From the NCBI GenBank assembly GCA_020724905.1, contig DYGB01000001.1, positions 65,866-129,865 on the forward strand: a stretch of DNA of 64,000 nt, written 5' to 3'. Positions 19,620-64,000 of this stretch are shown in pieces (positions within the stretch are counted from its first letter, which is position 1; each line of letters starts with the position of its first letter). The notes under the pieces are model-generated. The model had not been told where the DNA came from and made no database searches. It saw nothing but the letters and a program-made list of their open reading frames with translations. A program made the position numbers and the translations under genes. Origin of the DNA: Candidatus Paceibacter sp. GTDB taxonomy: Bacteria; Patescibacteriota; Minisyncoccia; UBA6257; JAGOQP01.

Positions 19620-20044
19620 TGAAAAAAGTAGTATACCTCACAATCAAAGAGATTGAATTTTCTGCCTATGAACTTGCAGTACAACTCCTCACAGGGAGCG
19701 AACCGATACCACCGTTCTCAACTCGATATCCTGAAGTTCTCGAGCGATGCGTATATAGCCCACAACAAACATTTGATAAGAAGGATATGTATCCAACGCT
19801 GTATAAAAAAGCGTCAATTCTTTTTTATACACTTATCAAGAATCATCCTTTCAAAAACGGTAATAAACGAATAGCTCTTACATCACTCATTCTTTTTCTA
19901 GAAAAAAATGGATATACTATTACCATAGATTCAGTGCGCATTTACCGCTTCACTCTCTGGATAGCAGAAAGTGATGCAAGTTTAAAAAGTTCAGTACTAG
20001 AGATAATAGAAGAATTTATTAAAAAATACTCAACAAAACTATGA
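19619..20044 (+). CDS. doc: Doc (death-on-curing) toxin, Fic/Doc family kinase
   Basis: Fic/Doc motif HPFKNGNKRIAL (HxFx[D/N]GNKR) at the expected position. At 141 aa it is the typical Doc size. Confidence 0.8.
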   Translation: MKKVVYLTIKEIEFSAYELAVQLLTGSEPIPPFSTRYPEVLERCVYSPQQTFDKKDMYPTLYKKASILFYTLIKNHPFKNGNKRIALTSLILFLEKNGYTITIDSVRIYRFTLWIAESDASLKSSVLEIIEEFIKKYSTKL

Positions 20045-26782: not shown

Positions 26783-26823
26783 AGTATGACTCTATCACCC
26801 CCTCTTCATTCAAGCAATATGAT

Positions 26824-27927
26824 TTATCTTTCTAGATATCTTTCAAGCTGAGAAAAGAATAATTCTTTTCTAAATCTTTTCTCTACCTCTATGAGAGCAT
26901 GCTCTGAATACTTCTGGTACATATCCCTATCTTCAAGAAGTGTCCTTATAGCATCAGAAAGGGCACCAGAGTCTTTTGGAGGGACGGTAAGTCCTGTTTT
27001 TCCATCTACACTTACCTCAGGAACTCCCGTAGGAAGAGCTGTGTTAATAACGGGCTTCCCACACGCAAGAGCTTCTATCTGCACAATACCAAATACTTCT
27101 GAGGATTCTGATGAAGGAAGTACAAATATGTCACAGGCATGATAGTAAGGAACAAGATCATCTACAGGATCGATAATATGAACTCGTTCTTCTAGGTTAT
27201 ACTTCCGTATTAATTCAGATAACTCATCTTTAAGGGGTCCATTCCCTATAATCAAAAGTTGCGCATTTACATCTTTCATCGCCTCAATGAGATATGAGAA
27301 TCCTTTGTAGTAAACAAGTCTCCCCACAGAAAGAAGGAGGGGTGTACCATATGTCTTAATAATAGCATTACTCTCCTCTTCTCTTGTAGAATCTTTCCTA
27401 AACGTATCTACATCAATTCCAAAATAAATAACTCTACACTTTTCTACAAACTGAGGAAGTATATATGAGGTCTGTAGTAACGTCTTATTTGAAACAAACA
27501 CATGTGTTGCTTTTTTTAACGTATAGCGAAGAAATGGATCAAATAACTTTCTTAGAAACTTCTGTTTTACAATATCAGAGTGATACCACACCACTACTTC
27601 TTTATCTCTTCCAAAAAGCCAGTATGCAATATAAGTAAGAGGAAAGGGGTGATGGATAAAGATAAGATCAGTTTCCTTTACTAGTTTTCTAAATAGAAAA
27701 AAGAAATCAATTGAAACAGGCATTCCTTTTACTATCCCCATGCTAGAAGCTCGATGGGTGACAACACCATCAACACCATCTTTCTTTCTTTTCCCCTGTG
27801 GCTGACAAACAAGATTAACAAGATCTATATCATCTTTTTTATTAAAATACATAGCTATATCACGAGCTATTGTTTCAATTCCTCCTATCCAAGGATAATA
27901 GAGTTTATTTATTTGAAGAATTTTCAT
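26824..27927 (-). CDS. Glycosyltransferase family 4 (GT-B, Glycos_transf_1)
   Basis: C-terminal signature EVFGIVQIEALACGKPVINTALPTGVPEVSVDGKTGLTV. Confidence 0.85.
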   Translation of the reverse strand: MKILQINKLYYPWIGGIETIARDIAMYFNKKDDIDLVNLVCQPQGKRKKDGVDGVVTHRASSMGIVKGMPVSIDFFFLFRKLVKETDLIFIHHPFPLTYIAYWLFGRDKEVVVWYHSDIVKQKFLRKLFDPFLRYTLKKATHVFVSNKTLLQTSYILPQFVEKCRVIYFGIDVDTFRKDSTREEESNAIIKTYGTPLLLSVGRLVYYKGFSYLIEAMKDVNAQLLIIGNGPLKDELSELIRKYNLEERVHIIDPVDDLVPYYHACDIFVLPSSESSEVFGIVQIEALACGKPVINTALPTGVPEVSVDGKTGLTVPPKDSGALSDAIRTLLEDRDMYQKYSEHALIEVEKRFRKELFFSQLERYLER

Positions 27928-29077
27928 GTATCTTCTTTATTATATCATCTACCGTATTACTCCTTATATCACAAATAATAACATGAGAAACGAGAGGAAT
28001 CATCGATTTAAAACGTACTAGTCCTCTTTTTGAATATGTTGGAAGATAAAAATTCTTGCAATCAATAAGACAATAGGTCTGTTTCTTTAGTATTATAGAA
28101 AGATGGGTGGGAAAAGATTCTATACCAATAACATACTGAGCATCTAGTAGTAGTCGTGCCAACTCTGGTATCGATAACTGCGTAAGAACAGAAACAGTAT
28201 TAATATCATGTGCAATCATGTTGAGCTTCTCCTCTTGATTCTTCACGCCAGCAAGATATACATGAATTCCACTCTTTGAAATTTCTTTTACTAGAGCTCT
28301 CCATTTATCTATACCCCATCCCCGATTGTTCCCAAATGTTGTAGGGGTAATGACAATATATGTGTCAACAATAGTGCCTACTGATTCAGCAATATTGAAA
28401 AAATGTGAACCCAACACTTCCTTTTTTATTCCCAAAGGAAGTAAAAGTTTATGTAAGTTTTTCCACTCTTCATTATATATATCATAGGGAACAGTTATAT
28501 CTGCCAAAAAATTTCTTTGGGACACATCAAAAGAAATTAAGACTTCAGGTTTAATAAGTTTCCATAAAATATTAGAACTTGGTGGTGAATGACGCGTATT
28601 AATAACAACATCATATTCATTATTTCTAAGAGTCTTTAATGTCCCAATATTTTCCTTAAAAATTTCCCACATTGATGTGTGTAGCTTTTTTCTCCCAGAA
28701 AGAAGCGCTCTAAGCAACAGGGAAATATCATAATACGTATATATACTACTCACACCTTTATTACCCTTTAGTACGGGGAGGGAAGATTCTTGAACAACAT
28801 AATCAATTACTGCATCTGGATATTTCTTTTTTATCGCAGTAATAAGAGTTGTTGATAATAGAACATCCCCTAATTGGTCTATCTTTACAATAAGAATCCT
28901 CTTGGGTTCTTGTTTTAAAGATTTCCCCTTCTCGAAAAGAAAAAATATAGAAAAGATAATATCAAGCAACACACTCACTAGATAATAAATGGCCTTCAAA
29001 AAACCCAGAAAACCACCTTTTAAATAAGATACCCAAAGTATAAACCAATTTTTAACTCTATTTTTGAGGTGCTCCAT
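27905..29077 (-). CDS. Glycosyltransferase family 9 (ADP-heptose:LPS heptosyltransferase-like) with an N-terminal TM helix
   Basis: ILIVKIDQLGDVLLSTTLITAIKKKYPDAVIDYVV matches the GT9 N-terminal signature KILVIR.SALGD....P....LK..YP.A.I. A hydrophobic segment precedes it. Confidence 0.65.
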   Translation of the reverse strand: MEHLKNRVKNWFILWVSYLKGGFLGFLKAIYYLVSVLLDIIFSIFFLFEKGKSLKQEPKRILIVKIDQLGDVLLSTTLITAIKKKYPDAVIDYVVQESSLPVLKGNKGVSSIYTYYDISLLLRALLSGRKKLHTSMWEIFKENIGTLKTLRNNEYDVVINTRHSPPSSNILWKLIKPEVLISFDVSQRNFLADITVPYDIYNEEWKNLHKLLLPLGIKKEVLGSHFFNIAESVGTIVDTYIVITPTTFGNNRGWGIDKWRALVKEISKSGIHVYLAGVKNQEEKLNMIAHDINTVSVLTQLSIPELARLLLDAQYVIGIESFPTHLSIILKKQTYCLIDCKNFYLPTYSKRGLVRFKSMIPLVSHVIICDIRSNTVDDIIKKIHENSSNK

Positions 29078-29907
29078 TATTTTACAAGTTTAAGTATTGC
29101 TTTATGTAAAAAAGATCTAGCTTTTGTTGGAATTATAGCTTTTAGAAAAATATAGAAAAGATGAGAACACCTAATAAGTAGAGCTCTTTTGTGCTTTAAA
29201 AATATTTTTCTATTTTTAAAAATAATATGAGCTTTACCTTTTAGTTGCTTAAGATACCTTCCTTTGGTTATTTGATTCTTGTGTTTGTAGTAGATAGTGA
29301 GAGGTTCATCGATATAACAACCCTTGAGATTCCAACCTCTTACACTCCATTCATCGTCCTCTAACCCAATTAAATCTCTATCTTCATCAAAAAGCCCAAC
29401 TGATAAAAATGAATCTCTTCTATACACATGTGAACTTGGCACACTTACCCCTACACCAGCAAGTTTCAAAAAACTAAGTTTATCTGAACTAATACCAGAA
29501 AATCGTTTTATTTCTTTTTCTCCTGTGTCCAAATATTGAATTTCATCTGCTGTATAACAAAAATCAAATTCTTTATGTTTTTCTAAAAGAGAGATTTGTT
29601 TTTCAAGTTTCTCAGGATGCCACCCATCATCAGAATCAAGAAATGCTATATAATCACTCGAAGAATTATTTATGGCCTTATTTCTAGCGGCTCCTATCCC
29701 TTTATTCTCTTGAAAGAAATATTTTATCCTTGAGTCTGACTTTGACAATTCTCCAATGACTTCTTTTGAAGAATCAGTAGATCCATCATCAGTAATTAAG
29801 AGTTCCCAATTTTTATAAGTCTGAGCTTGCACACTTTTAATACACCGGGTAATAAGATCAGACCTATTAAATGTAGGAATTATTATTGATACCAGTTTAT
29901 TTTTCAT
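29077..29907 (-). CDS. Glycosyltransferase family 2
   Basis: VSIIIPTFNRSDLITRCIKSVQAQTYKNWELLITDDGSTD, plus a DSDD (DxD) motif. Confidence 0.8.
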   Translation of the reverse strand: MKNKLVSIIIPTFNRSDLITRCIKSVQAQTYKNWELLITDDGSTDSSKEVIGELSKSDSRIKYFFQENKGIGAARNKAINNSSSDYIAFLDSDDGWHPEKLEKQISLLEKHKEFDFCYTADEIQYLDTGEKEIKRFSGISSDKLSFLKLAGVGVSVPSSHVYRRDSFLSVGLFDEDRDLIGLEDDEWSVRGWNLKGCYIDEPLTIYYKHKNQITKGRYLKQLKGKAHIIFKNRKIFLKHKRALLIRCSHLFYIFLKAIIPTKARSFLHKAILKLVK

Positions 29908-30869
29908 GATGCTTTCTCTAAAGGATTTCTACTAATAAACCTTCTCTTTATAAAAGAAACCATACGATAAATCCTTGATCCAAAAAACGAAAGAAGAAGT
30001 AAGAAAAATATATACAAATTAAACTTTCTTTTTAGGACATCAACATACACACGTCTTCCAATACTCATTTTACCAGCAAGACAATAATAATTCCCAAGAA
30101 TTCTTTTATTAAACAATAATAAAGATTCTTCAAACTCATTATATTTAGCAACGTGTTTTTCTATAAAGTATTCGAGTTCTTTTGCCTTCTTTAAAAAAGA
30201 AAGCTTTTTCCCAGCACTATCAGGCCGAGAATGCCAAAAAAATAGTGCTTCACGAATATAACCAAATGAAAAGCCAGTAAATAAAATTCTAAGATATAAA
30301 TCTCTGTCATCACTCCATTTCATGTTCTCATCGAATCCACCAACTACATTAAAAACATCTCTTTTGATAATTACACTAGAACAAGAATGAATAAAATTTC
30401 TTTTTAAAATATTTTTTTTAAAACAATCCTGCAAAGCCATTGAGTCTTGGTATATTCCAAGGGGTCTGTTGTTAGTAATCACAAAAAAGTTAGAAGCAAC
30501 AAAATCAAATCCCCCCTCCAACAAAAAATTTACCTGTCTTTCAATTTTGTTTGTAACCCATTCATCATCGTGATCTAAGAAAGCAATAAACTCACCCTTA
30601 GACTTTTTAATCCCGATATTTTTAGGATGAGCAGGGCCACCAGAATTTTTTAAAAAACGTATAACTGAGATTCTAGCATCAATTCTTTGAAAATTTTCTA
30701 TAATGCGAACCGTTCCGTCAGTCGATGCGTCATCCACAACAATTAACTCCCAATTTGGATATGTTTGTCTTCTAACAGAAGATATAGTTCGTTCTATAAA
30801 CTCTTCTGCATTATGAGTAGGGATAATAATAGAAACAGAAGGAGTGTTATTTTTTTTTAAGTTAAACAT
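29904..30869 (-). CDS. Glycosyltransferase family 2
   Basis: VSIIIPTHNAEEFIERTISSVRRQTYPNWELIVVDDASTDGT, plus a DHDD motif. Overlaps the downstream GT2 gene by 4 nt. Confidence 0.8.
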   Translation of the reverse strand: MFNLKKNNTPSVSIIIPTHNAEEFIERTISSVRRQTYPNWELIVVDDASTDGTVRIIENFQRIDARISVIRFLKNSGGPAHPKNIGIKKSKGEFIAFLDHDDEWVTNKIERQVNFLLEGGFDFVASNFFVITNNRPLGIYQDSMALQDCFKKNILKRNFIHSCSSVIIKRDVFNVVGGFDENMKWSDDRDLYLRILFTGFSFGYIREALFFWHSRPDSAGKKLSFLKKAKELEYFIEKHVAKYNEFEESLLLFNKRILGNYYCLAGKMSIGRRVYVDVLKRKFNLYIFFLLLLSFFGSRIYRMVSFIKRRFISRNPLEKAS

Positions 30870-30980
30870 AGATAATATTTAAAAAAACATAATTCTCAAC
30901 CCTATGCAGCCTAACCTAGATTGTATAGTAACACACACTTAACTCAAGATATAGATAAATTAGAACGTCTTTATCTTTTC

Positions 30981-32432
30981 TTAAGAATTATAAAATAGAC
31001 CCTTCTTGTTTTTCGTTTTTGCCAAAAAATAAAAATATCTCAAATTAAAAATGCAGAAATACAAACCAAAAATACTAAGATACATAAAAATTTTTGTTCC
31101 AGTAAATAAAAACAATCCTATTGACAAAAAGAGAACGAAAAATCTAAACATTGAGACGCTTTTTTTAAACCTTTTTTCATCAAAGTTCTTTGCTAAAAAT
31201 ATTTCCTTTTTTATACCATATTGGATAGCATCGGGAATCATGCTATACACAACATAAAACAGCGGCGCTATCAGAAAATTTACACTCAGAACGGAAATGG
31301 GGACAGCTATTTTTATAATTCTTAACAGTGAAAAAGTTACTATCTTCACTTTTGAGTTTTCTTTCATCACATTATGCAAGAAAAAAATAAAAAGCGTCAG
31401 GAGAGAAGAGAGGAAGAAGTATAAAGCGATCCCTTTCAATACCGAAACGATACTAACAATGAAAAGGAACATGCTGAATTTTATAAATGCAAACAAAGGC
31501 AATCTGTCGCAAAACTTTTTTGTAGTTCTCAGGGTTGGATTTTTTTCACGCGATATTGCGAAACAATCATTCATTGCATATCCTATTTCATAAATACTGT
31601 AAAATCCGACAATGGCAATAAAAAACAACATGATATTTAAAAAAGAAAAAGGTATTTCTATCATAAAAAAATTCACTGCTTGGGGGAAGATAAACATCGA
31701 TATCAAAAAATCCTTGAGTGACAGAGAAGATCTTCTTCTATATAAATCGTAAGAAAACGGAGAAAAAAAAGAGTGTGTGCGAAACTCCGGGTTAAAGCTT
31801 GTAACAAATGTGTTTATACCAAAACCATTCCACCACTCCTTCTGAAATTTTAAATCCCAGCTATAACTATAGATAACGGCATTTGCTTTACCAAATAATT
31901 TAAGAAGTTCAACATCGCTCTTATTATCAGAAAAGCAAAACGATTTATCAAAATCTATATTCTTTTTCCATTCTTTTTCCGCAAAGATTTCCTGCTTCTT
32001 TCCGAGTAAATCTTTTTTTAAAACACCAGTACATCGATTATTGATAAAATCAAGTTCCGACGATTTCCAATTGTCAAATCCAAGTTTACGAGCAAATACC
32101 TCGGCAGTGCAATCTATTGTTCCAGAAATAAGTAGAGTTTTATATCCTTTCTCCTGTAAAAGAATGGATTTTTCAACTATTTCATTGTTTAAATATTTTT
32201 TTGAATATTCAAAAAAATCCTCCGTTCCTTTTCTGAGATCTTCTCGAGAAAACCCCTCTAGAAGATTCAACGATTTTTTTCGAAAATCAAAAATAAATTT
32301 TAATTCCCGAAAAATAAGGAAAAATGCATATCTTATTTTTGAACGTCTCCACAAAAAATAACCTATAAAATCAAAGGTTGTATTTACATTTACTAAGGTA
32401 TCATCAAGGTCAAAAACAGCGATTTTTCTCAT
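30981..32432 (-). CDS. Fusion protein: N-terminal HAD-superfamily hydrolase plus a C-terminal polytopic membrane domain (divergent UbiA-prenyltransferase-like)
   Basis: HAD motif I at the N-terminus (IAVFDLDDTLVN). The C-terminal ~230 aa have 7-8 TM helices and a UbiA-like block (YAMNDCFAISREKNPTLRTTKK) in which the usual Asp residues are partly replaced. Confidence 0.5.
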   Translation of the reverse strand: MRKIAVFDLDDTLVNVNTTFDFIGYFLWRRSKIRYAFFLIFRELKFIFDFRKKSLNLLEGFSREDLRKGTEDFFEYSKKYLNNEIVEKSILLQEKGYKTLLISGTIDCTAEVFARKLGFDNWKSSELDFINNRCTGVLKKDLLGKKQEIFAEKEWKKNIDFDKSFCFSDNKSDVELLKLFGKANAVIYSYSWDLKFQKEWWNGFGINTFVTSFNPEFRTHSFFSPFSYDLYRRRSSLSLKDFLISMFIFPQAVNFFMIEIPFSFLNIMLFFIAIVGFYSIYEIGYAMNDCFAISREKNPTLRTTKKFCDRLPLFAFIKFSMFLFIVSIVSVLKGIALYFFLSSLLTLFIFFLHNVMKENSKVKIVTFSLLRIIKIAVPISVLSVNFLIAPLFYVVYSMIPDAIQYGIKKEIFLAKNFDEKRFKKSVSMFRFFVLFLSIGLFLFTGTKIFMYLSIFGLYFCIFNLRYFYFLAKTKNKKGLFYNS

Positions 32433-33352
32433 TTTTTAAAAACAAAATTTCCTCCGTATTCTTTAATATTTGATAGATCTCCTTCTATCTCATGGATATC
32501 TCCATTTTCATCAATATAATGTGATTTATATCCCATATTTCGAAGAAGTCCTACGGCCTTCATCGATATGTTTTTTCCCATATTACCACTCCATACCTCA
32601 AGAATTACAATAGGAGAATTGCTTCTTAGAAAAATTTCTCCTCCTTCAAGTACTGATTTCTCCCCACCCTCCACGTCTATTTTCAAAACCGAGGGGGTTA
32701 TGTTTTTAGATTTTATGTACGAATCCAATGTTATCGTATTAATATTATGTGATTCAGAATAATTCCAACTTTCCCATTCTTTCATATTAACTGTATCTTT
32801 ATTTAATGTGCTTATACCAGAGTTTTCTTTTGAAGTATACAGCTTTGATCTTCCTGTAAAACTTGAAATTGCTAAATTCTCAATAAATGTATTTTCTCTT
32901 TTCCCATTTTTGAGAAGAAAATAAAAAACCTTTGTGTTCGGCTCAAAAGAACATACCTTCTTGCAAATTTCTTGAGCGAGATATGTATAAAATCCATAAT
33001 TTGCCCCTATATCAAAAAATACGTCGTTTCCTTGAAGATTCTTAATAAGATACTTTACAAGTCGAAATTCCTCATCGTTTCCACTCGGAAATCCAAAAAC
33101 AAAAATTCTAAATGACTCCCAATCTAATACGGGAATTCTAATAAATTTTCCAAAGACAAGTTTTATATCTCTTTCTCTTCTCCCTAAAACACCAAGTTTA
33201 AAAAGAAGAGAATAAAAATATAGCTTAGGAAAAGAAAAAAGTCTTTTTATTTTCTTTTTAAAACCTGGTCCAGATATTTTTTCTAATCTCTTTTTATTTT
33301 CTTCTGTCTTTTTCAATAAAGACAAAAAGATAATTGTTTTAGGATTTGACAT
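32429..33352 (-). CDS. FkbM-family methyltransferase (Methyltransf_21)
   Basis: VFFDIGANYGFYT SAM-binding motif and a ...KIDVEGGE... block, typical of FkbM. Confidence 0.75.
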   Translation of the reverse strand: MSNPKTIIFLSLLKKTEENKKRLEKISGPGFKKKIKRLFSFPKLYFYSLLFKLGVLGRRERDIKLVFGKFIRIPVLDWESFRIFVFGFPSGNDEEFRLVKYLIKNLQGNDVFFDIGANYGFYTYLAQEICKKVCSFEPNTKVFYFLLKNGKRENTFIENLAISSFTGRSKLYTSKENSGISTLNKDTVNMKEWESWNYSESHNINTITLDSYIKSKNITPSVLKIDVEGGEKSVLEGGEIFLRSNSPIVILEVWSGNMGKNISMKAVGLLRNMGYKSHYIDENGDIHEIEGDLSNIKEYGGNFVFKK

Positions 33353-33848
33353 ATATAAATTATATCTTCTAATCTATTCCAATTTAAGAACATGTTTTTT
33401 TAATGATGGTCCGAGTCTAAAATTACCATTACTTTATCATTGTCACTTATTAGTTCTCTATATCTATAATTTCTTTTGGTGTAGATGAACCGGATAAACA
33501 TTTTATTCTTTTATGTCTTGGTTTATCTTTTCTACCTTTGATATCTATCGTTATTATCTTCCTATTATTTACTAAATCACATATAAAAGCATGGGGCACT
33601 TCTTTCGTGTATAGTCCCAAGTTTAGTCATTATATATTGTATGTGGTCTTATTTCAAAAATTTGTATACGTCCACCACTTTTTTGAGACTCCTTCCTGTA
33701 TTGAGAGGTGTCTGTATCATACACTGAAAGGGAGAGAGAAGACCTTTTGTTCCTTTCCATGTATTGAAACACATCATATATGAGCCCTACAAGACAGCCT
33801 CATGTATGTGAACTTATGTAATATTAAATACAAATTTAACAAAAAACC

Positions 33849-34637
33849 TCATAAATATATAACTCCTATACCCGCCCATCCTTGGCTATAATCATGTACT
33901 AATTCAACATTTCTATGTTCACCTTTAATTTCATCCCAGAAAGAATTAACTTCACAACCAGAATCTTTGGAATGAACACAAATATCATGAAATGCAATAA
34001 TTCCACCATTTTTTACAAGTCCGCTATATAGCTGGAAATCTTTCTTCACTCCTTCATAAGAATGATCCCCGTCTATGAAGAGAAAATCAATCTTTCTTTC
34101 TTTTAAAATGTCTTTAATCTGGTTTATCATACTACTAGAATGAGAATCCCCCCTTAAAAGAAAGAGACTCTGCTTCTTCTTTGTAAAAGATCTAAAAAAG
34201 GGAGATTTCACTTCTGAGTACCCTCCCCCAAAATCACCGCCTGGAAGATCTATACTTATCAAAGTTGCTTCATCTAAGCCAAGTTTAGAAAAACAAAAAA
34301 GCGTTCCTCCTCTAGCAGTTCCGATCTCAACTACCACCTTTGGTTTTTGTTCTTTATAGCGCACGAGTAAATCTAAAAATTCTGAGTCAACCTGCATAGG
34401 AGCAAAACTACTAAAAAAAGATTCTTTTATAAAATTAAATACATCAACCTCATTGGTGGAATTAAAGTTTGCTATTTTCCTTACTACATATCTCTTAAAC
34501 AAAAACAAATACAAATTAATAAGAAATATTTTTATTCTAAAAAACATTGCCTTGCCTATACGAAAAAGTAGATAAAAAAATCCTTCGCTTTCTAAAATTT
34601 TCTTAATTTTTCCTTTATTGTTTTTTAACAAATCCAT
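33849..34637 (-). CDS. Class I SAM-dependent methyltransferase (Methyltransf_24 / CmcI-TylF-like O-methyltransferase)
   Basis: VVEIGTARGGTLFCFSKLG...FIDGDHSYEGVKKDFQLY...GGIIAFHDI is the hallmark arrangement of this family. Confidence 0.75.
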   Translation of the reverse strand: MDLLKNNKGKIKKILESEGFFYLLFRIGKAMFFRIKIFLINLYLFLFKRYVVRKIANFNSTNEVDVFNFIKESFFSSFAPMQVDSEFLDLLVRYKEQKPKVVVEIGTARGGTLFCFSKLGLDEATLISIDLPGGDFGGGYSEVKSPFFRSFTKKKQSLFLLRGDSHSSSMINQIKDILKERKIDFLFIDGDHSYEGVKKDFQLYSGLVKNGGIIAFHDICVHSKDSGCEVNSFWDEIKGEHRNVELVHDYSQGWAGIGVIYL

Positions 34638-53838: not shown

Positions 53839-54114
53839 ATGCCAAATACAACATCAGCAAAGAAAGCTCTCCGCCAAACTACAAAAAGGAGAGAACAGAA
53901 TAAACAACGAAAAACAGCATTAAAAAAGGCGGTAAAGACATTTCGCAAACTTGCATCTGAACAGAAAAAAGATGAAGCACAAAAAGCACTTGCCACTGTA
54001 TATAAGACTGCTGATAAAGTTGCGAAAACAAACGTTATCAAAAAAAATAGTGCTGCCCGAATAAAATCACGATCAGCACAAGTATTTAAAAAGTCTTTTA
54101 GTGCTGAGAAATAA
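53839..54114 (+). CDS. rpsT: 30S ribosomal protein S20
   Basis: MPNTTSAKKALRQTTKRREQNKQRK... is a basic 91-aa protein with the S20 signature. Confidence 0.9.
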   Translation: MPNTTSAKKALRQTTKRREQNKQRKTALKKAVKTFRKLASEQKKDEAQKALATVYKTADKVAKTNVIKKNSAARIKSRSAQVFKKSFSAEK

Positions 54115-54898
54115 CGTAAGAAAGGAACAGTAAATCAAGATCTTCTCCCTGTTTCATACGGGTATCGATAATAGAAAGTCGTTCAATGAGCGACTTTTTT
54201 GATGCGACAGCACTCATGTAATAAAAGAGTGCTTCTGTACCAATTCCTTGAAATAATAGCGCCTCAAATAGTGAAAGTCTTCCAGAAAGAGATCCTCCTA
54301 GAAGTGCGCGGGATCCTTCAAAAAGTGTCTTTTCTTCTTTGTGTTCAGGAAGCGCAAGAATATCAGAAGCACTCACTGAACGCCCTAAAAAAGAAAGACG
54401 ATCTATCTCATGAGAAAGAAGTGCAACATTATCTCCATAGAGTGAATGAAGAAGAACAAGTGCTTTTTTCTCAATCAAAAGACCCTTCTGTTTTGAACGC
54501 AAGGAAAGATACGAAATAAGATCACCTCCTTTCAGTGGTCCAAAATACTGTTTCTTCGTAATATAGGCACTAAGCTTCTTCTCATGCTTCTTGTACTCCT
54601 TTTCAGTCCATGAGCTTAACATGAGCGCAACACATTCCTTGTCCATTGATGCTCTTTGAATGAGTAGTACCATATCATCTATAGAAAATTCCTCTGCTTG
54701 TTTGATAAGAGCAAGTCGTTTTCCTCCAGAAAAAAGTGTCCGTGAAGAAAGAAAATCAATCGCCTCTGCCATAGCTCCCTCATCAGCTCCAGAAAATATC
54801 CCTATCTCTACCCCTCCTTTCTTTTGAACATCCCTTAAAAGAGCGTGTGACTGCTCTCTCTTTCTAAATGCCTCGGGACCATAGAAAAAATACACCAT
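54098..54898 (-). CDS. DNA polymerase III delta subunit-like protein (HolA-like)
   Basis: Starts ...YFFYGPEAF..., with helical-bundle pattern LL..L..N...L..EI.KL. At 266 aa it is short but consistent with reduced-genome HolA. Confidence 0.5.
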   Translation of the reverse strand: MVYFFYGPEAFRKREQSHALLRDVQKKGGVEIGIFSGADEGAMAEAIDFLSSRTLFSGGKRLALIKQAEEFSIDDMVLLIQRASMDKECVALMLSSWTEKEYKKHEKKLSAYITKKQYFGPLKGGDLISYLSLRSKQKGLLIEKKALVLLHSLYGDNVALLSHEIDRLSFLGRSVSASDILALPEHKEEKTLFEGSRALLGGSLSGRLSLFEALLFQGIGTEALFYYMSAVASKKSLIERLSIIDTRMKQGEDLDLLFLSYVISQH

Positions 54899-57428: not shown

Positions 57429-59144
57429 CTAGGAGAGAACCTTTTTAATAAATGAAACAAATAGTGGATGAGGGGAAAGAGGGCGAGAAGTGAGTTCTGG
57501 ATGAAACTGGGTTGCAACGAAAAATGGGTGCACCTTAGGAGGAAGCTCTATAATCTCAGCCAGTCTCCCTGAAGGAGAAAGCCCTGATATTACAAGTCCC
57601 TTTTGTTCCAAGAGATCAAGATATTCTGGATTAATCTCATATCGATGTCGATGCCTCTCAGAAATCACAAGATCATCTTTCTTGCTGTACTCACGTCTAT
57701 TAACAAAAGGAATATGAAACCTCTCAGCTGACCGATACGCCTGATATGCATGTGTTCCTTTCTTTACTACTGCAGGATATACTCCAAGTCTCATTGTTCC
57801 TCCATAACGTTCTTTTGAAACAACATCTTTCTGTTCAGGAAGTATATCAACAAAAGGATGGCTTGTATTCTCATTAACTTCTGTTGTATGTGCGTCTGAA
57901 AATGAAAGTACGTGTCGAGCAAACTCTACCACAGCAAGCTGCATTCCATAACAAAGCCCCAAAAATGGTATCTTCTTCTTTCGAACATACTCAATAGCGG
58001 CAATCTTTCCCTCAATAGAACGAGTACCAAATCCTCCTGGAACAATAATTCCATCATATCCAGAAAGAACAGAGAGATTTTTTCGTGCTTTCTCTTTTCC
58101 TACCTCAGTAGGATCAAAATCAGCAGCATTTAACCACTCTAACTTCACACGAGCCCCAAGATGAAATCCTGCATGTTTTAGTGCCTCAATAACAGATACA
58201 TATGAATCAGCAAGAACAAATGATCCTGAAGAAAAGTATTTTCCTACCACACCAACACGAACTTCTTTTTGAGCTTTTTGAGATTTCTTTACAAATTTCT
58301 CCCATACAGAAAAGGTGTCTTTTTTAACACGTAATCCAAGTTTTTTAAGAAGGAGTGAGTCCAGCCCAGCTTTTTTAAAGTTAATAGGGATTTCATAGAT
58401 ATTTGAAACATCGGGAGCAGCAATAATGCTCTCCTTTTCCATATTACAGTTAAATGCAATCTTTTCTTGTCTTTTTTTATCAAGAGAAAGTGCGCTTCGA
58501 GCAAGAATAATATCAGGCTGTAGTCCTCCTGAGTTTAGTGTACGAACGGCGTACTGTGTTGGTTTTGTTTTTAGCTCATTATCTTTATTAAGCAAAGGAA
58601 GATAACTTACCAACACGAGTGCAACATCTCCTCGTTTCTTTTGACGAAGCATGCGAGCAGCTTCTGAGAAAATAAATCCTTGATATTCTCCCACTGTCCC
58701 ACCAATTTCAATAACACCAATATCAGCATCTTCTACATCAAGCGCATGATTAATCTTTTTGATAATCGCAAGAGGAATGTGAGGAATCACCTCAACACAC
58801 TTCCCTTTGTATTTTAATGACCGCTCTTCTTCAATAACATCACGGTAGATGCTCCCGGTTGTCATGTAATTTTCCCCTGAAAGATCTCTATCTAAAAATC
58901 GTTCGTAGTTTCCCATATCCTGATCACACTCTGTTCCATCAGGAAGCACAAATACCTCTCCATGCTCTGTTGGATTCATGGTCCCAGCATCAACATTTAC
59001 ATAGGGATCAATTTTAAAAGCAGTGACCTTGTGGCCACTGTCCTTTAAAAGACGTGCTATTGATGATGCAGCAACACCCTTCCCGACACCAGACATGACA
59101 CCCCCCATAACAAAGATGTATTTTCGTATTCGTCGGGATTTCAT
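57429..59144 (-). CDS. pyrG: CTP synthase
   Basis: KYIFVMGGVMSGVGKGVAASS N-terminal synthase motif and the C-terminal glutamine amidotransferase motif (GLCYGMQLAVVEF). The start is chosen at MKSRRIRKYIF rather than the longest ORF. Confidence 0.9.
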   Translation of the reverse strand: MKSRRIRKYIFVMGGVMSGVGKGVAASSIARLLKDSGHKVTAFKIDPYVNVDAGTMNPTEHGEVFVLPDGTECDQDMGNYERFLDRDLSGENYMTTGSIYRDVIEEERSLKYKGKCVEVIPHIPLAIIKKINHALDVEDADIGVIEIGGTVGEYQGFIFSEAARMLRQKKRGDVALVLVSYLPLLNKDNELKTKPTQYAVRTLNSGGLQPDIILARSALSLDKKRQEKIAFNCNMEKESIIAAPDVSNIYEIPINFKKAGLDSLLLKKLGLRVKKDTFSVWEKFVKKSQKAQKEVRVGVVGKYFSSGSFVLADSYVSVIEALKHAGFHLGARVKLEWLNAADFDPTEVGKEKARKNLSVLSGYDGIIVPGGFGTRSIEGKIAAIEYVRKKKIPFLGLCYGMQLAVVEFARHVLSFSDAHTTEVNENTSHPFVDILPEQKDVVSKERYGGTMRLGVYPAVVKKGTHAYQAYRSAERFHIPFVNRREYSKKDDLVISERHRHRYEINPEYLDLLEQKGLVISGLSPSGRLAEIIELPPKVHPFFVATQFHPELTSRPLSPHPLFVSFIKKVLS

Positions 59145-59182
59145 TGCTCCCAATGTATCATGAGAAGTCAAAAAACTCAATA

Positions 59183-60463
59183 TTAGAGCTCATCAAGTAA
59201 TGAAGGTTCGTGTTGAGGGATATATGAACTGTCGGTAGGTAAAGAAAGAGTAAATATAGAGCCACGTTTAAGCTCAGAGATAACACTGATATCTCCCCCG
59301 TGACCTCGTACAATATTACGAGCAATATAGAGCCCAAGTCCCGTACCATCAGCAACGGCTCGCATTGCATTCTCTGCTCTGAAAAACTTTCCAAAGAGTT
59401 TATCTATTTGATCTTGAGGAATACCAATTCCAGTATCTTCAATAGATATGGTAACAAATCCTTCTTGACCCTCTCCGATACGAACAGTAATCTCTCCATT
59501 CTCAATATTATACTTAAGTGCATTGTCTAAAAGATTTAAAACAACCATTCGCATCTTTTCTTTATCGATAACAACAGATACGTCTTGCGCAGGACGATCA
59601 AAATACAATTTTATCCCACTCTCTTTTGCAAGTGGATAGACCTCTTTGAGTAGTTCATCAAGGTAGGATACGAGTGGTACTGTCTCAAATGAATATCCAA
59701 ACTTCCCTTCTTCTATCTTAGATACATCAAGTAAGCTATTAACGGTACGTAATGCATTTTCAATAGCTGCTTTTCCTGTATCAACAAGTTCTTTTTGAGA
59801 ATCAGTTAACGTCTCATCATGAAGTCCTTCAAGAGCCCAGTTGGTAGCGGTAAGAGGAGTACGAAGCTGATGAGCAGCAACACCAATAAATTCTGTTTTT
59901 GAACGAAGTAGTTCAGCTTCTCGTGTTTTATTTACAAACAATTTTACAAACGCTACCACCTTCCCCTCACCATCAATGACTCGCTGTGTTGTGACACGAA
60001 TATTAAGAGGAGGATCGGTAAAGATGACATCAGCAACAGAAGGATATTCCCCAGAAGCAGTTCTCCTAATAACTGCAGGAGCAAGGGTAAGGAATACACA
60101 CTGAATAAATCGTTGCATCTTTGTATCAGAAGCCTGTGAGGCATCAAGTTTCTTTGGCATATCAGATGAAGAAAGTCCAAACATATCTTCAAGTTCTTTG
60201 TTTGCCTTAAAGACACGGAATGATGAATCATATACAAGCACCCCCACAGGAGCATGTTCCAAGATAACCCTACTCAATGATTCTCCTATAGAAGACATCT
60301 CTCCAACACGTGAAGCAAACAGAGTTCTTTCAATAATAATACCAAGCGCTATAAGTGCTCCAAGAATAATACTAACAGCATTCCAAGGAGAAGGAATAAA
60401 AAAAGAAGCTCCAATAAGGAGAATTGATAAAATTCCTCCACTGTATGCAAATATGCTATTCAT
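59183..60463 (-). CDS. Sensor histidine kinase (2 TM helices, a PAS-like segment, a DHp H-box, and HATPase_c)
   Basis: H-box AAHQLRTPLTA, N-box LLDNALKYN, and G-boxes DTGIGIP / GTGLGL. No response-regulator gene is adjacent. Confidence 0.85.
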   Translation of the reverse strand: MNSIFAYSGGILSILLIGASFFIPSPWNAVSIILGALIALGIIIERTLFASRVGEMSSIGESLSRVILEHAPVGVLVYDSSFRVFKANKELEDMFGLSSSDMPKKLDASQASDTKMQRFIQCVFLTLAPAVIRRTASGEYPSVADVIFTDPPLNIRVTTQRVIDGEGKVVAFVKLFVNKTREAELLRSKTEFIGVAAHQLRTPLTATNWALEGLHDETLTDSQKELVDTGKAAIENALRTVNSLLDVSKIEEGKFGYSFETVPLVSYLDELLKEVYPLAKESGIKLYFDRPAQDVSVVIDKEKMRMVVLNLLDNALKYNIENGEITVRIGEGQEGFVTISIEDTGIGIPQDQIDKLFGKFFRAENAMRAVADGTGLGLYIARNIVRGHGGDISVISELKRGSIFTLSLPTDSSYIPQHEPSLLDEL

Positions 60464-61637
60464 GAGAAATATCTAGTCTATACAATTTACTATCAAGTCG
60501 ATTAATAAAGTAAAAGAAACCATTTCGTGTAACTGGACTGGTTATATCTAATGAAATATTTTTGCCTCCAAAAATAAGTTCTGAAGAAGAGTCTTGAAGA
60601 TTAAACATATATATTTCATCTTTTGTATATAAATTCCTCTGCATATAACTATCAGGTAATTGTATTCCAGAATCTTTGCTTAGAATATATGGGACTCCGC
60701 AAATCATAGAATTATCTCCATCAAAGACACACTTTGAAGAAATGGTTGAAAGGGATAGTGTTGATGGGCTGGCCGATCCATCAATATCAAATACATCTAT
60801 CCGTATAGTTAATGGATTTAAGCTAGAGAATCTTGCTAGATAGTTCTGATTATCAGTTAATACATCTAACCCCTTTCCAGAAAATAACTTCGTCATTCTA
60901 TGTGTAGAAGTGTTAAAAATCCATGCAGTACCATAGAAGTTGTAAGATGTGGACGGATAGAGTAAAAGAGATGTATTTTTAATCCATACAACATTCATAT
61001 CAGTAAACTTAAATTGAGCCTCTACCTGAACATCATCAATATCATCCACATCAAAAATAGAGACGGTATATATTCCTTCTGACCTATTAGAAAAAACAAT
61101 CGAGCTTTCATCTGGTGAAAAAGATGCTGACGAAAAAGAATATGGAATACTTGTCCAAGCCTCTTTTTCAGAATCAAATAAAAATATTCCGCTATCAAAC
61201 CAGACAAGTGCAAACGAACCAAGTTTACTAACAACAACTTTGTACGGATTTAACCTTGGAAGATTTTCAACCACAACTCCATCTTCCTGAGTATGTTTCA
61301 CTAAACTATTCTGAGAAATAAAGAAAATATTTTCTTCCTCGTTCTCACTGTATATCCAAAAATAATCAGCCTGTTTGTCAGACACAATACTAAGAACTCC
61401 CTGTTCTTGAGTAAAATCATCTTCTGTATCTACGTTAGAAAAGGGAACCGCTTTATATTCAGAATCGATATTGGAACCACCGCCCGAAACATCTCCTATC
61501 GGTGCCGTAGGAAAGCCAGTCTGAGTTGGTTGAGGAGATAAAATGACAGAAACATTCTGAAGGCCGAAATAAACCCCTACAGCAATAGCAAGAAGGATTA
61601 CGATAATGATAAATATTGTGAGAAATTTTTTATTCAT
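60456..61637 (-). CDS. Membrane-anchored extracytoplasmic protein, beta-propeller-like (TolB/PD40-like) fold suspected
   Basis: N-terminal TM helix (LTIFIIIVILLAIAVGVYF) followed by beta-strand-rich W/Y/F-x-S/D repeats. Overlaps the kinase gene by 8 nt. Confidence 0.45.
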   Translation of the reverse strand: MNKKFLTIFIIIVILLAIAVGVYFGLQNVSVILSPQPTQTGFPTAPIGDVSGGGSNIDSEYKAVPFSNVDTEDDFTQEQGVLSIVSDKQADYFWIYSENEEENIFFISQNSLVKHTQEDGVVVENLPRLNPYKVVVSKLGSFALVWFDSGIFLFDSEKEAWTSIPYSFSSASFSPDESSIVFSNRSEGIYTVSIFDVDDIDDVQVEAQFKFTDMNVVWIKNTSLLLYPSTSYNFYGTAWIFNTSTHRMTKLFSGKGLDVLTDNQNYLARFSSLNPLTIRIDVFDIDGSASPSTLSLSTISSKCVFDGDNSMICGVPYILSKDSGIQLPDSYMQRNLYTKDEIYMFNLQDSSSELIFGGKNISLDITSPVTRNGFFYFINRLDSKLYRLDISHE

Positions 61638-61640
61638 ATT

Positions 61641-62717
61641 CTAGAAATGCATATGAATGTGAAATCCACCAATCACCCTTCCATCAGAGGTAAACACATC
61701 GTTGACTGGAAACGCCTTACCTCCCTTATCAAAGAAAACACTTGGATTGCTCCCTCCTTGATTCCTAGCTTCATTGTAAAATGCATCTTTATACCACTGC
61801 CAAATAGCTTTCTTTTCTTCTCTTGTTAAGTTTGACGCGGTAGATACTGGAACAACATCAGCGGCTCTACCTAAATAGTGATACGATGATTCGGCATGAT
61901 TATCTCCTGTAAGACTCGTTATCCTAAAATTAGGAATTTTACTCTTTTCAAGGGAAAAAGAGGATCCTTCAAGATTAATAACAACAACTCCTTCTTCCTG
62001 AGATAGTTGTTTCTGTTTATTTTTTACATTTAGTAATGTGGCTAATATGCCTTCGGTCACATACACGGGTGTTCCTTCACAACTATATGAACCCTCTTCT
62101 GTCCCAGAAACAATATTAAGACCACCAGAAGTACACAAATTTTCGTCAGTCGTACATCCACGAGCGCACACAAAAGGAAGTTCGCCATTTTCCATGTCTC
62201 TAAGATTTGACTGTGGAGTCGCACCAGCGAAACATTGATCAGTTCCAGATAAATCAACTCCTGAGGCACGGAGTGACGTTGCTAACTGGATAGCATTCTC
62301 ATTTTTATTTTCCCATTCACAAGAAATCTCTGAAGAATTTGGTGGAGCTGCTCCCTCAGGTAACTCTTGTTGAGTAAGTGCAGGATTTCTCAACTCGACA
62401 AGATTTGGATTTATTGTATTAAGAATGAGAAACGCCCCAGCGAGAAGAACAAGCCCCCACACAGCACTCTTTATAATGTCCTTGGCGTCTCCTTGGGCTG
62501 ATACATTTCCAGCAGTAACAACATATTTAATACCACCAAAAACAATCATAATAACAGCAAGGGTTCCTGCTATTCCTAAGATGTACAGATAAAAATTGTT
62601 CACAAGGCTTGCAGGATCTCCTGATTGAGTAAACGAAGGAAGCTCTAAACGATACTCATCTGCAAAAGCATTTTTGATAGAGAAAAGTGATGCAACTAAT
62701 AAATAAAAAAGTGACAT
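61641..62717 (-). CDS. Fusion protein: N-terminal TrbC/VirB2-like pilin domain, a Cys-rich linker, and a C-terminal LAS-family (peptidase M15) peptidoglycan peptidase domain
   Basis: Signal peptide (MSLFYLLVASLFSIKNAFA). Two hydrophobic helices separated by a short polar loop (NFYLYILGIAGTLAVIMIVFGGIKYVVTAG-NVSAQGDAKDIIKS-AVWGLVLLAGAFLILNTI), matching the VirB2/TrbC pilin layout. C-terminal motifs SSYHYLGRAADVVP (SxHxxGxAxD) and terminal GGFHIHMHF (HxH) match Peptidase_M15_3. Confidence 0.65.
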   Translation of the reverse strand: MSLFYLLVASLFSIKNAFADEYRLELPSFTQSGDPASLVNNFYLYILGIAGTLAVIMIVFGGIKYVVTAGNVSAQGDAKDIIKSAVWGLVLLAGAFLILNTINPNLVELRNPALTQQELPEGAAPPNSSEISCEWENKNENAIQLATSLRASGVDLSGTDQCFAGATPQSNLRDMENGELPFVCARGCTTDENLCTSGGLNIVSGTEEGSYSCEGTPVYVTEGILATLLNVKNKQKQLSQEEGVVVINLEGSSFSLEKSKIPNFRITSLTGDNHAESSYHYLGRAADVVPVSTASNLTREEKKAIWQWYKDAFYNEARNQGGSNPSVFFDKGGKAFPVNDVFTSDGRVIGGFHIHMHF

Positions 62718-62719
62718 AA

Positions 62720-63421
62720 TTATTTTATTCTAAATTGCTCATAAAACGTAGCAGAGGAAAATAATCCCCCTTCTTGATTTACCGAAATTTCAATAGGGAA
62801 GATACGACCCCTTACCCCTTCTTCTGGAATAGAGACATTAAGGGTATATTTCGAATCAGCCTCCACCGGAACTTCTTTACCATTTACTTTCCATGACACC
62901 CTAAGTGCATTGGGATCAATGTTAAAGAAAAAAGGATACACAGAAAGAAAAAGCTTTTCACTAGGAAGTACATCAGGGACAAATTTATGATAGTCCACTA
63001 CAACACGAGGAGCAACAATAGGAATAGATTCATGGTGATTTATATTATAGGAACGACCCAGTTCAGAGTCATAGTAATCAACAATACTAACTCGTACAGA
63101 AAGAGTTTTGTCAGGATAATCTTTATTCCTAACACGAACACTCTGCAGTCCATTCTCTTTCTTAACAAAGTCATCGTTAATATACCATCGCACCTCTTTA
63201 TTAGAGATATCAATAAGACTTCCTTTTAATGCTCCATTTTGTTCAACAACTTCAAAAGAAATATCTATGTCACTATCATATGATGGAAACGCCTTCCCTT
63301 CATACCATGATGGTGTTATTGTCTGTGCCTGCCAAGAGAAAATGATTTCTGGTTCTTTCGCAAAAACAGAGCCAGAAGACATTAGAAATATAGAACCCAC
63401 CAGTAGTAGAAAAAACTTCAT
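62720..63421 (-). CDS. Hypothetical secreted protein (signal peptide; beta-rich)
   Basis: MKFFLLLVGSIFLMSSGSVFA is a cleavable signal peptide. No recognisable domain. Separated from the neighbouring gene by 3 nt. Confidence 0.45.
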   Translation of the reverse strand: MKFFLLLVGSIFLMSSGSVFAKEPEIIFSWQAQTITPSWYEGKAFPSYDSDIDISFEVVEQNGALKGSLIDISNKEVRWYINDDFVKKENGLQSVRVRNKDYPDKTLSVRVSIVDYYDSELGRSYNINHHESIPIVAPRVVVDYHKFVPDVLPSEKLFLSVYPFFFNIDPNALRVSWKVNGKEVPVEADSKYTLNVSIPEEGVRGRIFPIEISVNQEGGLFSSATFYEQFRIK

Positions 63422-63461
63422 TATATCTAGTATATCATCTCAAAAAAATAAGATAAACTGT

Positions 63462-63863
63462 CTATTTTCCATGAACTCCTCCCCTTGGGGTTATAGCATT
63501 AGCAAGACCCATATATTTTCCCCATTTTTCAGGATTATTAGTAGCTAAGATAGTGAGAATAATAACAATAGTCCTTGTTGGAGAGATATCTAAAAACGGT
63601 ATAAGCTCTATTCCATTTGCTATAGCATTCCTACTCACAACGCGTGGAGTTCCTTTAAGATACAGGTACAAAAGCGTCGGTAGTCCAATAAGAAAATCAA
63701 CCAAAAAACCAACGATTGCACCAACACCCGTTATATCAAGAATTTCGAGAGCATCTCCTATAAGATTGAATGAAATAAGAAAAAAACTCTCAACAAAACC
63801 AAACCTATGGTTATCTTGAATAACGGGAATATTGGATTCTATAGCCTTTTCTTCATTGTCCAT
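63462..63863 (-). CDS. Hypothetical small membrane protein (2-3 TM)
   Basis: 133 aa with hydrophobic segments (FFLISFNLIGDALEILDITGVGAIVGFLVDFLIGLPTLLYLYL). No recognisable domain. Confidence 0.4.
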   Translation of the reverse strand: MDNEEKAIESNIPVIQDNHRFGFVESFFLISFNLIGDALEILDITGVGAIVGFLVDFLIGLPTLLYLYLKGTPRVVSRNAIANGIELIPFLDISPTRTIVIILTILATNNPEKWGKYMGLANAITPRGGVHGK

Positions 63864-63866
63864 AGC

Positions 63867-64000
63867 GTATTATACCTGCTCACCATCCTTACGTAATAAA
63901 TCTCGAGGATTTGTAGTAATAATTTTGTCTTCAAAATAGGAAGCAACAACTTGCATAGCAACATGCTGAAGCCCAGCAAAGAAAAGTCCCTGTCCCACTC
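63867..64000 (-). CDS. C-terminal fragment of a minus-strand gene continuing beyond the window
   Basis: Open frame ending at a TAA at 63864-63866 (...GLFFAGLQHVAMQVVASYFEDKIITTNPRDLLRKDGEQV*). Its identity cannot be determined. Confidence 0.3.

Follow-up and report, generated by a model that had tools for sequence, protein, structure and literature searches.

Near the end of a 64,000-nucleotide stretch of a Candidatus Paceibacter sp. genome (contig DYGB01000001.1, positions 65,866 to 129,865; here called the window), five consecutive open reading frames (ORFs) run head-to-tail on the minus strand from position 63863 to 59183 and encode proteins of 133, 233, 358, 393 and 426 amino acids (aa). 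They are, in this order, a membrane protein with two hydrophobic segments, a secreted protein, a pilin fused to a cysteine-rich zinc-site domain, a membrane-anchored β-propeller and a sensor histidine kinase. A preliminary description of the sequence had suggested that the five form a module dedicated to envelope sensing or remodelling, with a kinase that responds to the ligands of the extracytoplasmic proteins. The results below point to another arrangement. The first four genes are the distal part of a known Patescibacteria-type type IV secretion system (T4SS) cluster, and the propeller gene is the distal boundary of that cluster. By position, the kinase is the ortholog of a kinase-receiver-receiver unit that stands in a housekeeping block, and its adjacent receivers have been lost. 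We consider it probable that the region is the junction of two units, a T4SS tail and a widespread kinase, and not one sensing module. The pilin-carried family of wall domains, the propeller as last gene of the cluster and a kinase without receivers are modest additions to an already known cluster.

The T4SS cluster and its distal boundary

The T4SS of Patescibacteria comprises VirB4, TrsD, PrgI/VirB3, VirB6 and VirB2-like pilins without a relaxase and is related to the monoderm MPF-FATA systems (PMC12102498; PMC10633639); it is essential to the epibiotic growth of Southlakia epibionticum (PMC10633639; PMC12857230), the one relative that is genetically tractable. The window and the adjoining sequence were read on contig Ga0246236_1000055 of the Joint Genome Institute (JGI; 145 kb), where the sequence of the 358-aa protein is identical and gene tables with Pfam assignments cover 81 kb. 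The final 131 nt of the window (63870 to 64000, minus strand) are the C-terminus of a VirB4-like T4SS ATPase, namely its last 43 codons, with a translation identical to L001:8720-8848, and the gene extends past the window end. The full protein of 587 aa matches P-loop_TraG (2.6e-30) and also AAA_10 and DUF87 in Pfam. Going upstream from VirB4 there follow a 219-aa TraC-N/TrsD-like, a 173-aa PrgI/VirB3-like, a 247-aa and a 774-aa TrbL/VirB6-like protein, then unannotated proteins of 603 and 261 aa, and finally ksgA. The Pfam scores of these components were 8.2e-7 for PrgI, 3.8e-5 for TraC_F_IV and 2.4e-4 for TrbL, the last two below their cut-offs. A precomputed gene table names TrbL_3, PrgI, TraC-like and AAA_10/P-loop_TraG upstream, and the TrbL_3/PrgI/TraC-like set is also present in loci L084-L086. 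The 261-, 603- and 247-aa proteins had no match in Pfam or NCBIfam. The alternative suggestion of the preliminary description, that the genes lie at the margin of a secretion or pilus locus continuing past the window, was therefore correct. Extension of the contig, which it had advised, gave these T4SS genes upstream; within the window, pyrG, an AI-2E transporter gene and the gene for MetRS lie downstream of the kinase. The VirB4 unit is split (L001 6423-8848), with the 219-aa TraC-N/TrsD-like protein encoded directly upstream of the 587-aa ATPase, an arrangement also described in the pGO1 subclass and in Patescibacteria.

Conservation of the cluster was examined by tblastn of the locus proteins against 80 VirB4-centred loci from GTDB. 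VirB4 is 84% identical to its relative in a metagenome-assembled genome (MAG) labelled 'bacterium' and 80% identical to that of a Candidatus Wolfebacteria MAG, and these relatives put the organism among the Paceibacterota/Wolfebacteria-like Patescibacteria. Homologues of the 233-aa, pilin-like and 393-aa proteins follow VirB4 in the same order in about 45 of the 80 loci, at VirB4 identities down to ~55-60%, and because the order is conserved to this extent the four distal genes can be regarded as members of the T4SS and not as chance neighbours. The series VirB4, small transmembrane (TM) protein, ~235-aa secreted protein, pilin-X, propeller recurs in GTDB and metagenome loci. About 30 related T4SS loci contain no kinase; there the propeller is the final gene of the cluster and convergent genes on the opposite strand come next. 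Co-occurrence of all five genes across related genomes, by which the module had been meant to be judged, was thus found only in part: the 233-aa, pilin and propeller genes are syntenic in ~45 of the 80 loci, whereas the 133-aa gene is confined to close relatives and kinase orthologs also occur without a T4SS. As a separate observation, some 30 Paceibacteria T4SS loci (L016-L043 and others) carry after the propeller a conserved, convergent trio of ~145, 240 and 108 aa on the opposite strand, followed by a plus-strand gene of ~455 aa.

The topologies predicted for the two-TM, secreted, pilin-fusion, TM-anchored and kinase proteins all hold by hydropathy analysis. The 133-aa membrane protein (63462 to 63863, minus strand), with two hydrophobic segments, is encoded 6 nt downstream of VirB4. 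Its homologue, of 110-187 aa, directly follows VirB4 in close relatives only; in L084-L086 unannotated genes of 173-216 aa occupy the slot, and neither Pfam nor NCBIfam gave a match. The 233-aa protein (62720 to 63421, minus strand), a conserved member of the T4SS cluster, starts with a signal-like hydrophobic segment (residues 1-22) and has no Pfam or NCBIfam family and no sequence match in the PDB. For the 393-aa protein (60456 to 61637, minus strand), the AlphaFold2 model predicts an N-terminal TM anchor, a disordered linker (residues ~28-75) and a seven-bladed β-propeller of ~28 strands, with a predicted local distance difference test (pLDDT) of 78 and a predicted template modelling score (pTM) of 0.76. 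Foldseek returned more than 1000 PDB matches to this model at E <=0.001 (WD40, TolB, Tricorn and oligogalacturonate lyase propellers); many seven-bladed propellers were matched with a probability of 1.00 and TMq up to 0.53, with no one subfamily singled out, and homologues show weak PD40 and DPPIV_N matches. The TM-anchored, propeller-like protein of the preliminary description is thus supported by the model, which gives it seven predicted blades.

Taken together, Unit 1 (60456 to 64000, and ~8.6 kb further beyond the window) is a chromosomal Patescibacteria-type T4SS cluster resembling monoderm MPF-FATA systems, with the order 261 aa, 603 aa, VirB6/TrbL, 247 aa, PrgI/VirB3, TrsD/TraC-like, VirB4, two-TM protein, secreted protein, pilin-LAS fusion, propeller. 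The propeller and the two small proteins may be extracytoplasmic accessory parts of the apparatus.

The histidine kinase and its genomic contexts

The kinase gene (59183 to 60463, minus strand), which shares 8 nt with the propeller gene, encodes a class-I histidine kinase with two TM helices, a PAS domain and DHp and CA domains (Pfam PAS_8, HisKA 1.2e-13, HATPase_c 5e-29). In fourteen orthologs the two TM helices stand about 6 residues apart and are followed by the PAS-like domain; the H-box (AAHQLRTPLTA) and the ATP-binding boxes (DNA(I/L)KYN, DTGIGI and G(T/N)GLGL) are intact in all of them. Alignment of these orthologs together with hydropathy analysis showed that the kinase is without an extracytoplasmic sensor domain. 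Its closest NCBIfam families are PnpS (1.1e-54), WalK and PhoR, all far under their equivalog cut-offs (PnpS 186 bits versus 400, PhoR 148 versus 334), and its best PDB match is the VicK-like 4i5s. Unit 2 starts with this PhoR/PnpS/WalK-like kinase, which would be able to sense only within the membrane or via its cytoplasmic PAS domain.

No receiver domain was found in the window when CheY, PhoB, NarL and Spo0F were compared by phmmer with all stop-to-stop ORFs of at least 80 aa (best E 0.27), and over the 81 kb of contig for which Pfam gene tables exist, Response_reg does not occur. The earlier statement that no response regulator is present in 64 kb is therefore borne out. The same was seen in relatives, as no receiver stands near the kinase in any kinase-bearing locus of the orphan clade. 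The label 'orphan' is accurate for the locus, but it describes a derived state; relatives in the same slot have two receivers.

This became apparent from the genomic contexts of the kinase orthogroup, which contains 1095 proteins at E <=1e-40. Contexts came from a scan of 80 metagenome loci and from look-ups of 6 exact contigs, and three types can be distinguished. In the first (G1) the kinase stands after the T4SS tail and has no receivers; this type was seen in the window, in 13 GTDB species and in 7 further loci (L084-L086 and L089-L092), more than 20 loci in all. In the second (G2; L087, L088, L093-L098 and L100-L103), it is flanked by a 5'-3' exonuclease gene on one side and by (pyrG), a ~270-aa gene, S20, RuvA and a Mur ligase on the other; receivers are likewise lacking, there is no T4SS within 10 kb, and the kinases show 41-45% identity. 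In the third (G3; L120, L128, L131, L143, L160, L163 and others) the flanks are those of G2 and two tandem single-domain receivers of 125-140 aa stand right after the kinase. On a neighbour-joining tree the G1 and G2 kinases form one clade in 100 of 100 bootstraps, with exonuclease-type members basal, and the main T4SS-adjacent clade is recovered in 95 of 100. We propose that the orthogroup is Paceibacteria-wide and that its older and wider position is the order exonuclease, histidine kinase, (two receivers), (pyrG), ~270-aa gene, S20, RuvA, Mur ligase. The window's clade has lost the neighbouring receivers, and there the T4SS cluster now stands immediately upstream of the kinase. The idea that the cluster was inserted between the exonuclease and the kinase was considered and is unsupported, as no exonuclease homologue was found in the window or in the T4SS-centred loci. 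Two further observations concern these flanks. In L088, DnaN lies 9 kb upstream, which fits the published origin-proximal position of Paceibacteria T4SSs and suggests a rearrangement hot spot. In the window, a 266-aa gene without Pfam match (54098 to 54898, minus strand) follows MetRS, where L084 has a TatD_DNase (259 aa); it is syntenic with S20, RuvA and the Mur ligase across the clade and may encode a divergent TatD-like nuclease.

Tight packing had been one ground for grouping the five genes. That they are five head-to-tail minus-strand genes is confirmed by the ORF listing. The junctions along the run are 40 nt, 2 nt, 3 nt and then the 8-nt overlap, so that the gaps of 8 nt or less given in the preliminary description do not apply to the first, between the 133-aa and 233-aa genes. 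Past the kinase, on the same strand, pyrG, the AI-2E transporter gene and MetRS continue the tight run. CTP synthase (pyrG, 57429 to 59180, minus strand; CTP_synth_N 8.2e-100) starts 2 nt after the kinase stop codon with a TTG start, or 11 nt after it in the JGI gene call. Since the run extends with equal tightness into pyrG, packing does not set the five genes apart, and in streamlined genomes of this kind it is no evidence of a functional operon. A promoter and terminator scan of 54-64 kb gave promoter-like sites rarer than in shuffled sequences and no intergenic terminator, a result that is uninformative for a Candidate Phyla Radiation (CPR) genome. A single transcript probably covers the T4SS tail, the kinase and pyrG.

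Several observations weigh against a junction of two independent units and speak for a different explanation, which we regard as unlikely: that the kinase works as a component of the T4SS tail. Its TM helices would contact the propeller anchor or another membrane subunit and read the state of the apparatus or contact with the host, and it would signal to an unlinked regulator tuning T4SS or envelope genes, like intramembrane-sensing kinases or PhoR reading the Pst transporter. First, there is the 8-nt overlap with the propeller gene itself; the kinase follows the T4SS tail in the 13 GTDB species and the 7 further loci, and in the 13 species-level genomes the gap between propeller and kinase is mostly 9 nt or less. 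Secondly, the adjacency is kept when the downstream neighbours differ, being AI-2E, MetRS and TatD in L084 and PBP2 and GalT in L085. Thirdly, the T4SS-adjacent kinases are polyphyletic on the tree: they are jointly monophyletic in 0 of 100 bootstraps, and the T4SS-adjacent kinase of L090 pairs with the exonuclease-adjacent one of L088 in 86 of 100. The junction would therefore have arisen or been lost repeatedly, possibly because linkage was selected for. Fourthly, a layout like that of PhoR/PnpS is characteristic of kinases sensing via partner membrane complexes.

Against this explanation, most Paceibacteria T4SS clusters stop at the propeller without a kinase. In the 66 VirB4 loci in which tblastn detected no kinase, VirB4 is at most 80% identical to the query; several of these loci are too short to reach the kinase position. 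Orthologous kinases stand in the housekeeping block without a T4SS; pyrG is equally close (2 nt), hence packing is uninformative in this genome; and no nearby receiver completes a pathway. Conserved synteny is not decisive either as proof of a kinase-T4SS module, because the downstream S20, RuvA and Mur ligase genes are as syntenic as the kinase in G1 genomes. The stronger form of the claim, a dedicated module in which the kinase senses the ligands of the extracytoplasmic proteins, is poorly supported, as the kinase has no outside domain and most T4SS loci end at the propeller, and it is further weakened by the presence of the orthogroup in a T4SS-free housekeeping block, with two receivers in that slot in a related clade. 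Preferably, the junction of two units is retained, with a kinase that most probably acts as a general regulator, signalling to some partner, perhaps an unlinked one, and not as a dedicated T4SS sensor. A kinase that has lost two neighbouring receivers and yet kept all catalytic motifs raises the question of its phosphorylation target.

The pilin fusion and its wall-domain family

The 358-aa fusion (gene 61641 to 62717, minus strand) has a signal-like N-terminus and two TM helices by hydropathy. Residues ~28-108 (62394 to 62636, minus strand) form a VirB2/TrbC-like pilin hairpin, matched by T4SS_pilin at E 4.9e-9 (36.6 bits, cut-off 26.6) and by TrbC at 0.011. In the PDB, phmmer matched only VirB2, and weakly (A. 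tumefaciens chains 8exh and 8cue), and the structural model places two long pilin helices at 35-67 and 72-102. The fusion is the sole ORF with a pilin domain in the window and the 9 kb upstream.

The remainder, residues ~130-358 (61644 to 62330, minus strand), is a Cys-rich domain that the preliminary description had called M15. It is modelled with pLDDT mostly 70-96 per 10-residue block. The pattern sought was H-x6-D ... H, with S-x-H-x-x-G-x-A-x-D and a C-terminal H-x-H, and it is present, with S278, H280, G283, D287 and H353 invariant. Ten full-length homologues retain S268-L-T-G, H274, S278, H280, Y281, G283, D287, H353 and four Cys, and H355 is kept in ~90%. The same LAS zinc pattern was found in 110 of 145 family representatives. 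A profile of the domain matched Sonic hedgehog N-domains at E 0.0017-0.01, with the alignment lying exactly on the zinc-site motif; its match to an M15C L-Ala-D-Glu endopeptidase had E 0.11. The best fold match of the full-length model in BFVD was a Hedgehog-like Microviridae protein (probability 0.93, E 0.06, root-mean-square deviation 5 A over 96 columns). In per-sequence Pfam scans, Peptidase_M15_4 appeared in 4 of 9 proteins, M15_3 in 2 of 9 and HH_signal in 1 of 9, all sub-threshold. The metal-site signature points to a place with the LAS (Hedgehog/DD-peptidase) superfamily, and not to membership of M15. The fusion named earlier would thus be one to a divergent LAS zinc-site domain, and the M15 label needs softening, as no Pfam M15 model reaches threshold.

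In the mechanism that we propose for the fusion, the signal peptide would be cleaved and the pilin hairpin would then hold the protein in the membrane, whereby the disulfide-rich C-terminal domain would be placed outside the cell. There it may cut or bind peptidoglycan stem peptides in the role of VirB1, PrgK or TcpG. The target wall could be the cell's own, for passage of the apparatus, or that of the host.

Three results weigh against a wall-cutting LAS domain. The Pfam M15 models found no match at E <=0.1 in the window protein and none at E <=0.001 among 125 family representatives; the domain alone gave Peptidase_M15_4 at E 0.12 (13.4 bits, cut-off 25). Foldseek of the full-length fusion model against the PDB gave no significant match, only long-helix noise, with VanXYc (4oak_A) at rank 5 (E 1.0, TM-score 0.25). 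Finally, the acidic general base (E/D-x-x-H) 3-4 residues before H-x-H is not conserved, being present in 11 and 8 of 118 sequences, and the window protein has Gly and Ile at positions -3/-4; the domain may therefore bind instead of cleave. A second explanation, to which we give about the same modest weight as to the kinase being a T4SS part, is accordingly that the C-terminal domain has no catalytic activity and acts as a zinc-stabilised adhesin for peptidoglycan or glycans, as has been argued for some Hedgehog-type domains, with the fusion as an anchor or adhesin. It accords with conservation of the metal triad and the extra His without the acid, with top sequence matches that are Hedgehog N-domains and not M15 enzymes, and with the weakness of the structural matches to the latter. 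On the other side, other LAS enzymes (M23, Streptomyces DD-peptidase) employ an HxH His in catalysis, so the absent acid is not decisive, and sister proteins in the same slot bear bona fide hydrolase domains (SLT, M23, lysozyme-like).

These sister proteins came from two surveys. HMMER over 1.84 billion representatives at E <=0.001 gave a family of 464 representative clusters for the LAS-like domain; of 125 representatives scanned, 96 also have T4SS_pilin and 5 additionally SLT. In the equivalent slot of 50 loci, 47 proteins of 138-614 aa contain T4SS_pilin. The add-ons seen there are the LAS motif (7 relatives and the window protein), SLT (2), SLT_3 (1), Peptidase_M23 (1) and PKD (1), and many other slot proteins have Cys-rich regions matching no family. 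The most economical reading is that the pilin hairpin serves as a membrane carrier of domains that act on or bind the wall outside the cytoplasm. Among Paceibacteria a pilin-like protein with such a domain is very common: the domain is of LAS/Hedgehog type in hundreds of clusters and SLT, M23 or lysozyme-like in others. A 2025 survey reported that a recognisable VirB1 wall hydrolase is missing from most pilin-bearing clusters (PMC12102498); the pilin-borne domain is a candidate for this hydrolase and a handle on how the apparatus crosses the wall. Fusions of a pilin to a wall domain are unmentioned in the papers searched.

The C-terminus of conjugative pilins is surface-exposed, as in F-pilin display work. 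It is nevertheless improbable that the fusion is a true polymerising or tip pilin whose filament shows a wall-degrading domain and breaches or remodels the host wall in epibiotic attachment: the fusion is indeed the only VirB2-like gene detectable in the cluster and over 81 kb, its hairpin is well conserved, its family is large and almost always pilin-linked, and VirB2-like pilins are essential in cultured S. epibionticum (PMC10633639; PMC12857230), but a globular domain of ~250 residues per subunit would be hard to fit into known VirB2/TraA packing as judged from published pilus structures, no pilus has been demonstrated in Paceibacteria, many unrelated add-ons on the same carrier fit a generic membrane anchor equally well, and the catalytic competence of the domain is uncertain. 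If true, such filaments would mean that Paceibacteria T4SSs bring wall-active domains (LAS, SLT, M23, lysozyme-like) to the host surface, a novel means by which epibionts could breach the host; a weaker idea alongside it is that the receiver-less PhoR-like kinase at the cluster end reads out the state of the apparatus. The reading of the hairpin as a carrier, within a junction of two units, is the one adopted here.

Other features of the window and comparison with known systems

Elsewhere in the window, a 358-aa protein (14234 to 15310, minus strand) contains Por_Secre_tail, the C-terminal sorting signal of the type IX secretion system (T9SS) type, which is Bacteroidota-style and unexpected in monoderm Patescibacteria. 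Beside it lies an ORF of 1435 aa (1327 aa by the JGI call; 9815 to 14122, minus strand) with faint PKD_4 matches. From ~26000 to 34000 the GC content is low (0.30-0.36 versus ~0.40 elsewhere), and this stretch encodes glycosyltransferases, a MurJ/Polysacc_synt flippase and a HAD protein, with methyltransferases at both edges and a Wzy_C polymerase just past it (34.7-36.9 kb); it resembles a surface-glycan island, possibly acquired horizontally. At 19619 to 20961 (plus strand), genes for an HTH_17 protein, a Fic-domain protein (141 aa) and a CorA transporter follow one another, the last two overlapping by 4 nt, and may include a toxin-antitoxin-like pair.

The nearest known system is the chromosomal, MPF-FATA-like T4SS of Patescibacteria (Quinonero-Coronel et al. 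2025, PMC12102498; Wang et al. 2023, PMC10633639), with which the cluster shares VirB4, a separate TrsD/TraC-N-like protein, PrgI/VirB3, VirB6/TrbL and a VirB2-like pilin (PF18895). In both, no relaxase or coupling protein is seen and the genes are chromosomal, amid housekeeping genes. It differs in having a single pilin gene and not an array, fused to a LAS-type domain. The two-TM protein, the 233-aa secreted protein and the terminal β-propeller are not named components in either paper, and neither mentions a histidine kinase or two-component system.

The kinase shares with the PhoR/PnpS/WalK-VicK class-I kinases the layout of two TM helices, a minimal outside loop, a cytoplasmic PAS domain, HisKA with an intact H-box and HATPase_c. 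Kinases of the PhoR type sense via partner membrane complexes, as in PhoR-PhoU-Pst. Unlike theirs, the window kinase has no pst, phoU, wal or adjacent OmpR-type gene near it in the gene tables. VirA/VirG, BvrS/BvrR and BatS/BatR are likewise systems with a membrane histidine kinase encoded genetically near T4SS genes. They have cognate regulators, periplasmic or linker sensing domains and demonstrated control of a T4SS, whereas the window locus has no regulator and its kinase no outside domain.

With the T4SS wall hydrolases VirB1 (SLT), PrgK, TcpG and TrsG/CD419, the fusion shares an extracytoplasmic, putatively wall-active domain encoded inside a T4SS cluster, and its relatives in the same slot bear SLT, lysozyme-like or M23 domains. 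Unlike them, its domain is LAS/Hedgehog-type and not SLT, CHAP or NlpC, its activity is putative, and a VirB2-like pilin hairpin takes the place of a simple TM helix or signal peptide as its anchor. Compared with known LAS members, the fusion domain scores under all curated cut-offs, carries an additional Cys-rich N-terminal subdomain of ~100 residues, is without the conserved acidic general base and is nearly always joined to a T4SS pilin. The metal-site pattern is the one shared within the Hh/DD-peptidase (LAS) superfamily, which unites the M15 VanX, VanY and phage L-Ala-D-Glu peptidases with the Sonic hedgehog (Shh) N-domain (Roelink 2018, PMC6027127), and the H-x3-S-x-H-Y-x-G-R-A-x-D ... 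H-x-H of the fusion aligns with 'HHSEESLHYEGRAVD ... HIH' of Shh.

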